A DNA stretch of 64,000 nt from a virus: IMG/VR virus record IMGVR_UViG_3300027743_000025, positions 22,174-86,173 of that record; one strand, 5' to 3'. The translations under genes and the position numbers were made by a program. The notes beneath the pieces are model-generated. The model had not been told where the DNA came from. It ran no database searches and saw only the letters and a program-made list of their open reading frames with translations. Shown one piece after another: positions 667-63,946 of the stretch (position 1 is its first letter; each line of letters opens with the position of its first letter).

Positions 667-845
667 TTACCATCCCAGTTCACGAAATTGGTCAGGAAGC
701 GGATGATGTCCTTAGCTTCCTCATGGTTGACACGCAGTCGAATCATCCGGTCCGACTCCCGTTCCAGGTGCACACGCAGGGTTGCATCCTGGCTGTTATA
801 CCAGCCACCGCCCCCGTACGAGACTTCCCACGACCTCTTAGACAT
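663..845 (-). CDS. hypothetical protein
   Basis: AAGGAGAG RBS upstream; overlaps next gene. Confidence 0.7.
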   Translation of the reverse strand: MSKRSWEVSYGGGGWYNSQDATLRVHLERESDRMIRLRVNHEEAKDIIRFLTNFVNWDGK

Positions 846-856
846 CAGCGCTCTCC

Positions 857-1087
857 TTACAGATCATCGTGCGAACCGTCTGGCCCGCTAGGTCGCCGGG
901 GGAATCGCTGGTAGTAGCGCCGCCGCGTGTTGTAGTAGGTCTGCCGCGTGCCCACGTCATAGTGCCAGAGGAAGAACATCCAGGCCGGGACACCGAGGAA
1001 CCCCCACGGGGTGAGGCAGAACCCGATGGCCAGACTCAGCCCGATCGCGATCAGTGCGCAGGCCCGGAGCACCTCCCGCTGCATCAC
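857..1087 (-). CDS. small membrane protein
   Basis: Two hydrophobic segments followed by a basic tail. Confidence 0.65.
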   Translation of the reverse strand: MMQREVLRACALIAIGLSLAIGFCLTPWGFLGVPAWMFFLWHYDVGTRQTYYNTRRRYYQRFPRRPSGPDGSHDDL

Positions 1088-1287
1088 GGCGCATCCTTAA
1101 TGCTCACGTCCAGGCCAGCCGTCTCGGCCAGCGTTAAGATCAGGACTTCAACCTCGGACGGCTCCAGCATGACGGAAGCCGAAGCCCCACGCTGTCCTTC
1201 CAGGGTGAGCTGAACCCCAGGCCGCGTGGCCCGCTCGTCTATGTAGAGATACCCGTTGCCGTCTACCAGCTGCATGATGTGTTCCAT
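1084..1287 (-). CDS. hypothetical protein (leaderless)
   Basis: ATG 6 nt downstream of a TAGATT -10 element. Confidence 0.7.
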   Translation of the reverse strand: MEHIMQLVDGNGYLYIDERATRPGVQLTLEGQRGASASVMLEPSEVEVLILTLAETAGLDVSIKDAP

Positions 1288-1293
1288 GCCCCT

Positions 1294-1323
1294 AATCTAG
1301 CACACTGTCAACGAGAGTCAACC
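1294..1323 (-). promoter_or_regulatory. sigmaA-type promoter with tandem GTTGAC boxes
   Basis: TTGACT(1321-1316)-16 bp-TAGATT(1299-1294)-6 nt-ATG; second GTTGACA 10 bp after the first box. Confidence 0.7.
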
Positions 1324-1332
1324 CCCCAGTTT

Positions 1333-1363
1333 GGTTGGCACCTGTTGATAGTCCTGCTATAGT
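1333..1363 (+). promoter_or_regulatory. sigmaA-type promoter with tandem boxes
   Basis: TTGGCA(1335)-17 bp-TATAGT(1358)-6 nt-ATG 1370; GTTGATA 10 bp after the first box. Confidence 0.75.
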
Positions 1364-1369
1364 CGAGGT

Positions 1370-1723
1370 ATGGAAACCACCACGATCACTCAGTCCCAGA
1401 TCCAGCTCACCCGCGCCGACACTGTTGTGGCCGGCTCTACCATCATCCGGAACCGGTACGACAGCGGCGTGATGATCGAGCCGTCCTCGCACCTGGTTGA
1501 GCGCGCCGGCTTTGACTCCAAGGAGAACCGCGTCGTCTTCAAGTGTGGATACCGGATCTTCACCTACCGGCCGGCCGACCTGGTGATGGTCGTTGCCGGT
1601 GCTATGGTCCCCGACCCCCAGCTGGAAGACCTGGTTGACATGACCCTGCGCGGCGCCGGGATCACCGAGGAGACTCTGACCAAGGCCGACGAAAACCTTG
1701 ACGACGTTTGGCAGGTCGGCTAG
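1370..1723 (+). CDS. hypothetical protein (possible SH3-like N-terminus)
   Basis: Strong GC3 codon bias; leaderless start after promoter. Confidence 0.8.
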   Translation: METTTITQSQIQLTRADTVVAGSTIIRNRYDSGVMIEPSSHLVERAGFDSKENRVVFKCGYRIFTYRPADLVMVVAGAMVPDPQLEDLVDMTLRGAGITEETLTKADENLDDVWQVG

Positions 1724-1733
1724 TTTTCTCTTC

Positions 1734-1868
1734 GCCGGTCACCGCGAACCCCACAGGAACAGACCGCCTGTGGTCCACGCGGAACGCACTCACAACGCGG
1801 TGGCCGGCACCCTAACCTTACTGAGGGGGAGGGCCGGTAGGGATGCGGACGGGCGACCCTACCGGCCC
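1734..1868 (+). ncRNA. candidate structured RNA
   Basis: 13-bp closing stem (1734-1746 with 1796-1808) enclosing a CCACAGG/CCTGTGG hairpin; second 12-bp stem 1831-1868; no ORF in the track covers it. Confidence 0.4.
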
Positions 1869-1881
1869 GCCCTGTAAGCGA

Positions 1882-1913
1882 AGAAAACCCCCAGCCTAGG
1901 CCGGGGGTTTTCT
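1882..1913. terminator. bidirectional intrinsic terminator
   Basis: AGAAAACCCCC-AGCC-TA-GGCC-GGGGGTTTTCT inverted repeat with A and T tracts. Confidence 0.8.
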
Positions 1914-2008
1914 ACACATGTAGTAGCCCGCCAGGACATCCACGACTGGCTCTGCTACTGGTATGACTATGTAGTTGTCCCGAAACTCTAGCATGGTAGG
2001 GGTCCTAG

Positions 2009-62115: not shown

Positions 62116-62194
62116 AGTGGGCCGCGATCACGCTTGGTGCCTGCGTAGGCATCTGGGTATCCATATGGATCGTGGAAGGCTGGCATAGACAAAA

Positions 62195-62377
62195 ATGGTT
62201 CCAGAAGAAGACACAGTTGAACTCCCCATCGTCTCCGCCTACTACACGAACTACCCGCCTAGCACGGCGCGTACGCCATCAAACCGCCAGGCACTGGCAA
62301 CAGTGTCGATCGCTTTGACGTTCTCCATTTTCCTGATCGCGATGCTCTGGTTTGTTGTTCTTGGAGGTAGCCAGTGA
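62195..62377 (+). CDS. small membrane protein
   Basis: C-terminal TM helix; coupled to next gene. Confidence 0.55.
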   Translation: MVPEEDTVELPIVSAYYTNYPPSTARTPSNRQALATVSIALTFSIFLIAMLWFVVLGGSQ

Positions 62378-62739
62378 AGACCCTGCCGAAGTGGGCTATC
62401 TGGACGTGTGGCGGGCTGGCCGGGTTCCTGGCTGCAACGTTCCTTTCCTTGAGCGTGCCGCTGGCCGTGAGCCTGAGCGAAGGTGACCAGGTGGACGACT
62501 TCAGCACTCGGGATGTCGACTGGGAGTGCACGGCCGACCTCGGGGACTTCCGACTGGTCGTGGAAAACTCTGGCGACCAGATGCGTAGCTACTCACTCCA
62601 GCTGGAGATCTCGAAGCAAGGCATCGTGACCGGATCACATGAGCTAACTGTTCCCGACGTGGCTCCCGGAGATCGTCGCATCCTTGCCGAACACATCCCG
62701 GTGACTGGCGGGGACGCCTGCAAGCTGTGGGTTTGGTAG
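62374..62739 (+). CDS. membrane-anchored protein with Ig-like (FxLYD-like) domain
   Basis: N-terminal TM; V.N.G...SY...VAPG. Confidence 0.65.
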   Translation: MKTLPKWAIWTCGGLAGFLAATFLSLSVPLAVSLSEGDQVDDFSTRDVDWECTADLGDFRLVVENSGDQMRSYSLQLEISKQGIVTGSHELTVPDVAPGDRRILAEHIPVTGGDACKLWVW

Positions 62740-62746
62740 GTAACCC

Positions 62747-62774
62747 AAAAAGAGCCGGGCCTAAGGCCCGGCTC
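62747..62774 (-). terminator. terminator after peptide gene 1 (possibly bidirectional)
   Basis: GAGCCGGGCC-TAA-GGCCCGGCTC with a T-tract on the minus strand. Confidence 0.8.
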
Positions 62775-62793
62775 CGCCGCGACGGCCGATCGA

Positions 62794-62877
62794 CTAGAAC
62801 ACGAAGACACCAAGCAGGACGCCGGCTACCAGGCCGATGATAAGGCCGATAAAGACGCCACCCCAGTCGTAGGTCAT
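62794..62877 (-). CDS. 27-aa hydrophobic peptide (not in ORF track)
   Basis: GGGAGGG RBS; MTYDWGGVFIGLIIGLVAGVLLGVFVF. Confidence 0.7.
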   Translation of the reverse strand: MTYDWGGVFIGLIIGLVAGVLLGVFVF

Positions 62878-62934
62878 GATGTGTTCCCTCCCTCCCACGT
62901 AGTAGGAGCACATCCAGTGTACGCCGCTGGACGT

Positions 62935-62960
62935 AGAAAGAGCCGGGACAAGCCCGGCTC
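62935..62960 (-). terminator. terminator after peptide gene 2
   Basis: GAGCCGGG-ACAAG-CCCGGCTC followed by TCTTTC on the minus strand; paralogous to the 62752 hairpin. Confidence 0.65.
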
Positions 62961-62988
62961 CGAGGATCAACAGCGCACCTATCGGGAC

Positions 62989-63075
62989 CTAGAACACAAA
63001 TACCCCGAGCAGGACACCGGCAACAAGGCCGATGATCGCGCCAATCAGGAGGTTGCCCCAGTTGACACCACTCAC
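62989..63075 (-). CDS. 28-aa hydrophobic peptide (not in ORF track)
   Basis: GTG start; MSGVNWGNLLIGAIIGLVAGVLLGVFVF. Confidence 0.65.
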   Translation of the reverse strand: MSGVNWGNLLIGAIIGLVAGVLLGVFVF

Positions 63076-63108
63076 GTCAACGTCAACCTCAGGACCGTCG
63101 TAACGCAT

Positions 63109-63573
63109 CTATCTATCACCTCCCCCGACACTCCTCTCCAGTCTATACCGCTCCAGAGCACGCAAACGCCCACACGTTCTGCATTCACGTTTCCCGTTCG
63201 GCCTGATATAAAGGTTAGCTCCGAGGTATGGATGCCCCTGCGGGCAATGTGTTCTATCCGCATATCCGTTGCGGTGTCGTCCCAGCTCTACCATGTCTTC
63301 CATGTTGGATTTATGCGTCCCGGGAGTTAGGTGTCCTGGGTTGACACAGTGCCTATTAAGGCATCTATGTCGGGTTTCCAGCTCCAGTGGAAACGGCACT
63401 CCAGCCTCTATTTCCCAGGCCACGCGATGTGCCAAGGCAGCCCGGCCGAGCAACCCGAACCTTCCGTATCCTTCGCGATCTGTATAGGCCAACCAGGGCC
63501 AACATTCGTCCGGCCCCCGCACGTCGACCTTGGCCCAAAATCTGCGCTCGGCCTTCTCGTCATACAGCGTCAC
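63109..63573 (-). CDS. HNH endonuclease with C-terminal Zn domain
   Basis: RFWAKVDVRGPDECWPW, AHRVAW, HRCLNRHCVNPGH, CPQGH...CRTC; GTG 7 nt after TATACT. Confidence 0.9.
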   Translation of the reverse strand: MTLYDEKAERRFWAKVDVRGPDECWPWLAYTDREGYGRFGLLGRAALAHRVAWEIEAGVPFPLELETRHRCLNRHCVNPGHLTPGTHKSNMEDMVELGRHRNGYADRTHCPQGHPYLGANLYIRPNGKRECRTCGRLRALERYRLERSVGGGDR

Positions 63574-63592
63574 GGGCCGTAGTATACCGAGC

Positions 63593-63946
63593 ATGGTCAT
63601 ACTGAATACCGATCTTAGGGTCGGAGACCGCATTTGGGTGCGCGGCCCGAACGACTGGGAAGTCACCAAGATCGCATGGATCGCTGACAACAAGCTGACG
63701 CTATGTGACAACCAGGGCCGCTACTTCGTCACCCTTGAGACGAACCCTGTGTCAACCGGGTTCACGCGGCAGCTGGCCATGGTGCACTTCATCGACGGCT
63801 CGAAGCTGGCCATCCTGGTCTGCTCGATCGGCGTTCAGGAGACCCGCGAAGGTGGCTATGAGCTGGTCTACCGGACCCCGACCGGGGAAGAGGAGCGCAC
63901 CCCCCGCGATGTCGTTCGCTCCATCACGTTCGGGGACCAGTCTTGA
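63593..63946 (+). CDS. hypothetical protein (SH3-like, DLRVGD)
   Basis: ATG 7 nt after TAGTAT; divergent from the HNH gene. Confidence 0.65.
   Translation: MVILNTDLRVGDRIWVRGPNDWEVTKIAWIADNKLTLCDNQGRYFVTLETNPVSTGFTRQLAMVHFIDGSKLAILVCSIGVQETREGGYELVYRTPTGEEERTPRDVVRSITFGDQS

Follow-up and report, generated by a model that had tools for sequence, protein, structure and literature searches.

An evenly spaced, orientation-free 9-bp word is maintained by selection in the genomes of one phage clade

The 64,000-nucleotide stretch of DNA analyzed here (the window) comprises bases 22174-86173 of the IMG/VR virus record IMGVR_UViG_3300027743_000025 (G000; 86,173 bp, 61.4% GC), a record estimated to be complete (CheckV). 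A short word, GGTTGACA, is scattered along the window in 68 exact copies, 33 on the plus strand and 35 on the minus strand. In 100 dinucleotide-preserving shuffles of the window, the same word occurs on average 1.96 times (standard deviation, 1.38; largest count, 8). The plus-strand copies extend from position 725 to position 63346 of the window (8-mer starts 725, 1633, 2600, 3560, 3870, 4206, 10397, 10987, 12167, 14040, 18558, 18629, 20856, 24264, 25350, 29075, 29706, 32516, 34073, 34381, 35958, 36704, 39262, 43312, 44499, 47164, 48746, 52763, 55816, 56362, 59189, 60048, and 63339). The minus-strand copies, which read TGTCAACC on the plus strand, extend from 2924 to 63757 (starts 2924, 4441, 4685, 6114, 6339, 7239, 8443, 9277, 10021, 10052, 11493, 12044, 13163, 15444, 16684, 17569, 19841, 21248, 23212, 23588, 24997, 28541, 30031, 35763, 36428, 41688, 44301, 44580, 46002, 49731, 50204, 50629, 50818, 51442, and 63750). 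A preliminary description of this DNA had reported the same count and strand split against an expectation of one or two copies, and its coordinates are reproduced here.

In the whole G000 record the word is the commonest 8-mer, with 109 copies (48 plus, 61 minus), while the reversed word occurs once. A sequence logo of the 109 sites has a single informative flanking position, a pyrimidine at position -1 (98 of 109 sites; C 58, T 40, A 3, G 8), and carries no information downstream of GGTTGACA. None of the one-mismatch neighbors of GGTTGACA exceeds 13 copies. Given the informative -1 position, the uninformative downstream flank, and the scarcity of one-mismatch variants, the full word is a sharply defined 9-mer, YGGTTGACA. 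The extension to CCGGTTGACAC, initially described as frequent, is found in only 9 copies in G000 and is not general. As had been proposed, most sites lie inside open reading frames (ORFs): 88 of 109 (81%) are fully within called genes and 21 are intergenic or partial, in gene calls that come from a home-made codon-usage caller, so that all frame counts carry some error. The non-structural arm is the denser one, with 1.7 sites per kb against 0.9 in the structural arm. The cumulative strand curve is flat, with no switch of skew at an origin or terminus. FtsK-orienting polar sequences (KOPS) and other skewed, architecture-imparting octamers were considered and rejected on account of the 48:61 strand split, the flat curve, and the random orientation runs in five word-bearing genomes.

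Neither coding nor base composition produces the word as a by-product. When synonymous codons were shuffled within the genes of G000, the total fell to 27.0 on average (standard deviation, 2.6; maximum, 36; n = 300), and when codon order was shuffled, it fell to 22.4 (maximum, 27; n = 300), against the 109 copies observed; about 21 sites outside called genes stayed unshuffled in both totals. Markov models of orders 1 to 4 predict 2.6, 3.4, 7.2, and 19.9 copies of GGTTGACA. The higher predictions of orders 5 and 6 (49.6 and 89.6) are inflated because the sub-words of the word itself feed them. The enrichment thus withstands the controls that the preliminary description had called for.

The codons that spell the word are minor ones elsewhere in G000: outside the word, GTT makes up 14.5% of valine, TTG 8.7% of leucine, ACA 10.3% of threonine, and TCA 9.3% of serine codons. 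Yet GTT-GAC is used in 41 of the 52 valine-aspartate (V-D) contexts able to hold the word, in line with the rare-codon usage that the preliminary description had pointed out. Across G000, 87 of 142 synonymously permitted places carry the word. CGG-TTG-ACA is filled in 10 of 15 cases, and GGG-TTG-ACA, which places G at position -1, in 0 of 15. Excluding Gly-Leu-Thr contexts, occupancy is 54/72 in sense versus 33/55 in antisense orientation for the genome, and reaches 52/63 in the non-structural arm (36/44 sense versus 16/19 antisense). The proteome itself is shifted: peptides that can carry the word are encoded in 143 contexts, compared with 83.6 ± 9.3 (maximum, 105) in 200 amino acid shuffles, an increase of about 1.7-fold. 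Shuffles, synonymous occupancy, the carrier-peptide excess, and the conservation of sites reported below all support the earlier proposal that selection acts on the DNA rather than on the protein. The word is kept by natural selection, and at the level of the DNA this selection is strong, both purifying and positive. A functionless mutational or repair bias that turns near-matches into the word could in principle, if strongly directional, bring synonymous opportunities close to saturation. Such a drive, however, would not raise the number of carrier peptides, would not spare the one-mismatch variants that stand at 15 of the 55 unoccupied compatible places, and would yield neither the even spacing nor the loss of close pairs described below, and we give it almost no weight.

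The word marks a clade of phages rather than one phage, as it is dispersed through five genomes. The closest relative of G000, IMGVR_UViG_3300027743_000001 (G001; 86,542 bp), has a terminase 94% identical to that of G000, aligns with G000 at about 81% nucleotide identity across 74% of the genome, and carries 102 copies of the word. A scan of metagenome contigs with alignment of the large terminase subunit (TerL), in which loci with 0.6-1.2 copies per kb appeared alongside others with none, followed by single-protein scans of IMG/VR, led to three more carriers, all near-complete: G440 (82,691 bp, 79 copies), G441 (86,483 bp, 66 copies), and G442 (89,613 bp, 59 copies). Another 31 copies lie on G443, a fragment of 32 kb. 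G440, G441, G442, and G443 all lack the reversed word, which has 0-2 copies across the five word-bearing genomes. GC content is 70-71% in G440-G442, and the five carriers together span 61-71% GC. In the three GC-rich genomes the word extends to YGGTTGACAC, with C at position +8 in 58/79, 55/66, and 46/59 sites, respectively.

Sites are conserved among these relatives well above background. Of the 79 G000 sites that can be aligned to G001, 53 are intact, compared with 27% both for all 8-mers and for the 8-mers that flank the sites, and position -1 of the aligned sites is 98% conserved. In comparisons among G440-G442, 19/27, 10/23, and 10/19 sites are conserved against backgrounds of 21%, 15%, and 16%, respectively. 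Over all these pairs, the conservation of sites is 2.5 to 3.4 times above background.

Beyond the clade, the word is rare. Terminase relatives in IMG/VR at 34-55% identity have 0-2 copies per locus of up to 21 kb (at least 80 loci, among the matches listed). The 65-kb genome G435, with a terminase 55% identical to that of G000, has only 3 copies, and few or none occur in the further relatives G436 (0), G437 (2), G438 (0), G439 (0), and G444 (1). Among cultured relatives, the first 50 kb of DSL-LC01 and GodonK hold 3 and 0 copies, and the contig behind locus L342 (84 kb, with 2 sites in the 21 kb read) is another word-less relative. G435 shares structural genes with G000 and none of its non-structural genes. 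Because this genome has the structural genes alone and almost no copies, the determinant of the word travels with the non-structural arm or with the host. In an IMG/VR scan for pairs of the motif, the loci among the matches listed (at least 80) held local arrays and not dispersed copies. Two of them, on unrelated contigs (L223, positions 4877-5297; L234, positions 5502-5778), have 10-11 copies of GGTTGACA, mostly at multiples of 12 bp, and look like iterons or coding repeats rather than the dispersed word.

Across the five carriers, the mean spacing of sites is about 0.8 to 1.5 kb, and the sites are more regular than chance would place them. The coefficient of variation (CV) of the gaps is 0.58, 0.49, and 0.53 in G440, G441, and G442, compared with 0.98 ± 0.11 for random placement, and none of 2,000 random placements reaches the observed values. 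Close pairs are largely missing: gaps shorter than 300 bp number 3, 2, and 1 in the three genomes, versus 19.5, 13.5, and 10.7 expected. The non-structural arms of G000 and G001 both have a gap CV of 0.72 (P of about 0.003 and 0.005); the whole-genome CVs of 0.89 and 0.85 are not significant alone, and the tests in these two genomes are not independent because the genomes share half their sites. The regularity belongs to the two strands taken together. Per-strand CVs in G440-G442 (0.67-1.17) match the expectation under random labels (0.74-0.78), and only the pooled set is even. Orientation runs in G000 number 55, against 54.8 ± 5.1 under random labels, and orientation is random in all five genomes. 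Because single-strand spacing equals the random-label expectation and orientation runs are random, selection acts on the pooled set of sites: a site within about 1 kb matters, and its direction does not.

One stretch of the window is empty. The low-GC tail gene at positions 25514-27718 has no site in 2.2 kb, which fits expectation if sites accumulate with residence time. It encodes, on the minus strand, a 734-aa tail-region protein, has 53.8% GC, is weakly similar to a sequence in G001 (48% over 86 aa), and is probably a recently exchanged host-range gene. Elsewhere in the structural operon, positions 37283-39970 (minus strand) encode an 895-aa protein with a Zeta_toxin/AAA_33 kinase domain at residues 566-733 (Pfam, 5e-16).

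The host of G000 is probably an actinobacterium, given Pfam matches to an Rv2525c-like lysin, PASTA, DUF6011, and DUF7239, nearest cultured terminases and polymerases that come from actinophages, and named relatives of its pilin from Kribbella, Nocardioides, Geodermatophilus, and Amycolatopsis. Public sequencing runs containing the phage are freshwater-sediment and soil metagenomes. We compare the phages with 437 actinobacterial genomes: 12 with the closest pilin homologs, 401 evenly drawn Actinomycetota (including 15 unpublished genomes: G133, G014, G187, G404, G239, G061, G252, G031, G349, G161, G095, G281, G331, G356, and G101, from which no single-genome result is drawn), and 24 of the family of the richest genome. 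Enrichment near 1 copy per kb was not found in these 437 genomes, in which the maximum is 94 copies in 1.8 Mb; density never exceeds 1 per 19 kb, at least 20 times sparser than in the phage. The richest genomes form an actinobacterial clade with genomes of about 1.8 Mb (G130, G421, G423-G427, and G430), which have 81-94 copies of YGGTTGACA versus about 10 of the reversed word, a density of about 1 per 20 kb. A -10 element accompanies none of the 30 sites inspected in this clade, and many sites read as coding V-D.

The spacing and the host survey both bear on the possibility that the word is Chi-like, that is, read by a host helicase-nuclease of the RecBCD, AddAB, or AdnAB type, which on meeting it would cease to degrade phage DNA ends and would promote recombination. 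The word has an octamer-like length, selection for coverage would follow if DNA ends arise anywhere, and lambdoid phages reportedly carry the Chi of their host (PMC3784561). However, Chi works in a single orientation, so that sites of either orientation should be even on their own; the per-strand CVs instead equal the random-label expectation. The absence of any sampled actinobacterial genome with a comparable density and the phage's possession of its own recombination genes also speak against such a reader, and we consider it unlikely.

Several features of the word recall sequences that bias DNA uptake by competence pili: about 1 copy per kb, both orientations, several reading frames, a carrier-peptide increase of about 1.7-fold, and few sites in DNA that is likely recent. 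A doubling of carrier peptides is reported, in the available text of the source, for uptake signal sequences (USS) (PMC2817400). Uptake might proceed through a phage pilin. G000 encodes, upstream of the window (record numbering), a ComGC-like type IV pilin (3034-3375, plus strand; N_methyl motif, E = 6e-11) whose best named relatives are actinomycete competence pilins, an adjoining 482-aa protein (3452-4900, plus strand) with what we read as a pilin-like hydrophobic N terminus, and a membrane-anchored GmrSD_C-type nuclease (20703-21392, minus strand). Homologs of the pilin and the nuclease, however, were found by tblastn in G001 only and not in G440-G442, and no genome among the 437 is enriched. 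Moreover, the known USS-bearing phages of Pasteurellaceae are described, in the part of the source available, as temperate and as copying the USS of their host (PMC6776037), and the spacing is far more even than the accessible description of DUES (PMC1939737). An uptake function is, in our view, highly improbable.

The hexamer TTGACA within the word raises the question of promoters. The word itself was rejected as a promoter: 104 of 109 sites lack a -10 element at 16-18 bp, and TAnnnT at that distance follows just 5 sites (4 of 21 intergenic, 1 of 88 intragenic). Separately, the phages have a promoter family composed of TTGACA, a 17-bp spacer, and TAnnnT, with a second box (GTTGAC, GTTGAG, or GTTGGC) that follows the first by exactly 10 bp. 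G000 has 14 such promoters, G001 has 13, and G440-G442 have none. In the window, their first boxes start at 1321 (minus), 1698 (plus), 2602 (plus), 4690 (minus), 14333 (plus), 33785 (plus), and 61359 (plus), and seven more lie upstream of the window. The second GTTGAC box looks like an operator. The -35 boxes of these promoters show A, C, G, or T before GTTGACA. The dispersed word is independent of this promoter family, because the promoter boxes lack the Y-G prefix and because G440-G442 have no such promoters.

Host RNA polymerase could nevertheless read the word, as a -35-only site for region 4 of the principal sigma factor that serves either as a decoy or as an antenna concentrating polymerase. 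The word contains the very -35 hexamer of the phage's own promoters, and a single word maintained at 61-71% GC fits a very conserved host reader. Yet TAnnnT is properly placed at so few sites, the informative flanks (Y at -1, the first G, and C at +8 in G440-G442) are not common to the promoter -35 boxes, and there is no evident reason why a polymerase sink should be evenly spaced and short of close pairs. We regard a sigma-factor reader as improbable.

The operator-like second box in the early promoters of G000 and G001 would also suit silencing of the kind known from the stoperators of Cluster A mycobacteriophages and Streptomyces phage R4, where a phage repressor bound to many sites blocks transcription across the genome. 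The word has TGTCAA in common with the 13-bp stoperator consensus, which ends in TGTCAAG and lies between genes according to the accessible text of PMC5559632. As far as the available parts of the sources go, stoperators number 20-30 per genome, are oriented with transcription, are tied to a repressor, and occur in temperate phages (PMC6550527, PMC5559632). In contrast, the word occurs at 59-109 sites per genome, 88 of 109 of them intragenic, and G440-G442 carry it without the two-box promoters. The distinction from the stoperators of phage L5 drawn in the preliminary description holds, since the word has no orientation bias and is mostly intragenic. Scans of all called genes against Pfam and PHROGs, from which small repressors can escape, detected no repressor, integrase, or parABS; this may count against repressor-based silencing and fits the suggestion that the phage is lytic. 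We judge silencing of this kind very unlikely.

The same scans bear on the possibility that an enzyme of the phage or of the host reads the word in order to modify or nick the DNA. In its sharp, asymmetric 9-bp specificity the word is like those of Type IIG, Type III, or BREX-type systems, and a novel enzyme may have escaped the gene calls. The Pfam and PHROGs scans, however, detected neither a methyltransferase nor a base-modification family, and modification alone would leave both the copy number and the even spacing unexplained. The genome also shows classic restriction avoidance. In G000, the palindromes ACGCGT, CCGCGG, CTCGAG, GACGTC, GAGCTC, and GGGCCC have 0 copies versus 17-54 expected, and CTGCAG and AGGCCT have 1 each; in G001, ACGCGT, AGGCCT, CCGCGG, CTCGAG, GAGCTC, and GGGCCC are absent. 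The non-palindromic ACGAGG is depleted as well (10 copies versus 43 expected in G000, 9 versus 52 in G001). The strict avoidance of six 6-bp palindromes suggests that the DNA is exposed as ordinary DNA, which is a further argument against modification. The packaging or modification mark entertained in the preliminary description is thus without gene support, and we find a modification target quite improbable.

If the determinant is encoded by the phage, the genes that accompany the word may include its reader. A tblastn comparison of G000 ORFs with G001, G440-G442, G435, and G436 identified ten with homologs in all four other carriers and none in G435 or G436. One of them (50874-51044) was set aside because it overlaps a gene whose homolog G435 has. 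The remaining nine encode a DUF6011 protein, a 102-aa protein (p102), an SNF2 helicase, a RuvC-like protein, DNA polymerase A, DUF669, AAA_24, a PD-(D/E)XK nuclease, and a 190-aa protein (p190). Within the window, a replication/recombination arm identified by Pfam co-occurs with the word (5697-13553, minus strand); G001 and G440-G442 have homologs of all its genes, and G435 and G436 have none. It contains, all on the minus strand, the SNF2 helicase (5697-7589), the 157-aa RuvC-like protein (7887-8360; the label is our reading of an AVDPG-type motif), the family A DNA polymerase (8342-10129), DUF669 (10368-10979), AAA_24 (10936-11778), and the PD-(D/E)XK nuclease (12627-13553). The DUF6011 protein, a candidate reader conserved in all five word-bearing genomes, lies upstream of the window (10221-10907, record numbering).

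Co-occurrence with this arm, together with a mean spacing close to the size of Okazaki fragments, makes a replication signal conceivable, with the sites serving a primase-helicase as primase recognition sites or dispersed origins. But the 887-aa primase/polymerase-helicase (12619-15282, record numbering, minus strand) shows only 25% identity between the G000 and G001 versions, with no tblastn match in G440-G442, and lagging-strand priming is strand-specific, whereas even spacing is a property of the pooled sites alone. A replication signal therefore appears extremely unlikely. The replication genes neighboring the primase/polymerase-helicase are 89-96% identical between G000 and G001, which suggests a module swap.

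Three proteins had been named as possible binders of the word, and they fare differently. The winged helix-turn-helix protein at 17965-18240 has a homolog in G001 only and none in G440-G442 (tblastn). The C2H2 protein (13567-14346, plus strand; 259 aa) consists of an N-terminal domain, two C2H2 zinc fingers (Pfam zf-C2H2, 1.9e-6), and a predicted C-terminal coiled coil. Its fingers are nearly identical in G001, and it has homologs at 27% identity in G441 and G442 and no tblastn match in G440, where an 83-aa ORF keeps the N-terminal domain without the fingers. Microbacterium phage Burro has a homolog as well, yet no dispersed word in its first 50 kb, and this candidate is weakened. The third protein, p102 (4346-4654, minus strand), is the sole named candidate conserved in all five genomes (87% identity in G001 and 50, 47, and 45% in G440, G441, and G442 by tblastn; none in G435 or G436), and its link to the word is conjectural.

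To p102 we add p190 (14396-14968, plus strand), which has a conserved N-terminal domain of about 120 aa, a basic C-terminal tail, and homologs in the four other carriers (85, 39, 48, and 42% identity) and none in G435 or G436; K/R-rich tails are seen in the translations of the homologs. Either protein may be the reader of the word. Neither p102 nor p190 has a Pfam family or a PDB sequence match better than E = 0.7. The structure model of p102 has a pLDDT of 73.9 and that of p190 a pLDDT of 55 (best VIA Z, 4.5), with no Foldseek match at E ≤ 0.001 for either. Weak Alba-like Foldseek rows among the candidate folds (E = 0.3-1.2) are leads and no more.

The C2H2 protein belongs to a family (P0263-P0394) whose members, 170-400 aa long, have a common N-terminal domain in which G-W and P-D are invariant and H, A, and G nearly so; two C2H2 fingers come next and, in many members, a coiled coil. 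Burro gene 23, annotated "DNA binding protein," is a member, and prokaryotic-virus C2H2 pairs of this type seem little described. About 1 kb from the zinc-finger gene of Burro (L298, 17916-18140), nine copies of AGGTAACG fall within 230 bp, mostly paired 8-10 bp apart and in both orientations, a cluster that may be an operator or origin array.

Taking these observations together, we propose that YGGTTGACA (YGGTTGACAC in the GC-rich relatives) would be a recognition site held on phage DNA by selection and read as double-stranded DNA, because orientation makes no difference. Each copy would serve about 1 kb around it, and selection would be for coverage, with no long site-free stretch and no gain from a close second site. 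We infer from this pattern that a protein binds the word, that the protein is of phage origin, and that its binding has an effect on the surrounding DNA. We consider it quite possible, though still short of probable, that the reader is a phage-encoded, sequence-specific double-strand DNA-binding factor with a coverage effect of about 1 kb, which tells phage DNA from host DNA. Such a factor would likely be encoded in the replication/recombination arm common to all five word-bearing genomes, with p102, the basic-tailed p190, the N-terminal domain of the upstream neighbor of p190, and the DUF6011 protein as candidates.

Because the sampled actinobacterial genomes carry the word at least 20 times more sparsely, it could tag phage versus host DNA, and it could nucleate or anchor genome coating, compaction, protection, loops, or licensing. 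A more specific version is a phage-encoded "self-tag" system, in which a strand-free word at about every kilobase nucleates a regular nucleoprotein lattice, perhaps with the SNF2 ATPase and p190, that marks phage DNA and then compacts, protects, or licenses it; we regard this version as possible but on the unlikely side. The phage-wide protein-binding lattice of an apparently lytic phage, as first proposed, is still the best reading and is strengthened by the even spacing, while two of the three binders named with it are weakened and its modification mark has found no gene behind it.

Several points weigh against a phage-encoded reader of this kind. That the word is identical in phages of 61% and 71% GC is also compatible with a host reader that is highly conserved, for example the principal sigma factor, and the word includes a perfect -35 hexamer, TTGACA. 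Its rarity in the host is measured in sampled actinobacteria, which may not include the actual host. Because 6-bp palindromes are still avoided, a coat, if there is one, is no substitute for restriction avoidance. With the whole non-structural arm missing from the comparators G435 and G436, gene content cannot tell the nine arm genes apart as candidates, and no DNA-binding fold is matched confidently by the models of p102 and p190.

The word is imposed so strongly that minor codons are fixed at most of the places that permit it and amino acid sequences are shifted, and it is kept in phages whose terminases are about 55% identical. Chi, uptake sequences, KOPS, and stoperators are all genome-wide words, and each has led to a DNA-reading machine. 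No layout as regular as that of the present word is described for them, and it implies a reader with a defined range; five genomes can now be compared. The identity of the reader could reveal a new way in which phages mark, organize, or protect their DNA, and a self-tag system, if real, would give viruses a counterpart to Chi or uptake sequences, one maintained at a measurable cost in codon choice and protein sequence. The word can also serve as a marker for members of the clade in metagenomes. We know of no such evenly spaced word particular to a phage clade, and a literature search, which did not cover supplementary files, found no report of a phage-clade-specific, evenly spaced, orientation-free, and mostly intragenic word.

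Dispersed recognition words are a known kind of element, of which the phage-clade-specific, even, and orientation-free form was not met in the literature searched. Among the known systems, a sigma-70-type -35 element resembles the word in that the perfect hexamer of the phage's own promoters lies within it, and differs in that 104 of 109 sites are without a -10 element and the specificity at -1, the first G, and +8 is absent from real promoters. Stoperators of the Cluster A and R4-like kind are likewise many asymmetric sites spread over an actinophage genome, with a TGTCAA/TTGACA core overlapping the -35 hexamer, as the available text of PMC5559632 and PMC6550527 describes them; the word is shorter (9-10 bp), has 59-109 copies, 81% of them intragenic in G000, and is orientation-free and evenly spaced, with no repressor found in the scans. 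Chi, too, is asymmetric, of octamer scale, and under selection for coverage, and it labels DNA as "own" for a processive enzyme, but it is a word of the host genome with orientation polarity, whereas here orientation is random and no enrichment was seen in the host sample. The USS of Pasteurellaceae and the DNA uptake sequences (DUS) of Neisseriaceae are, in the accessible portions of PMC2817400 and PMC1939737, short non-palindromic words at about 1 copy per kb, in both orientations, mostly intragenic and in several frames, with raised carrier peptides, scarcity in recently acquired DNA, and conservation among relatives. All of these features recur here; unlike USS and DUS, the word, whose carriers do not have uptake-like genes conserved among them, belongs to a phage clade and is strongly regular.

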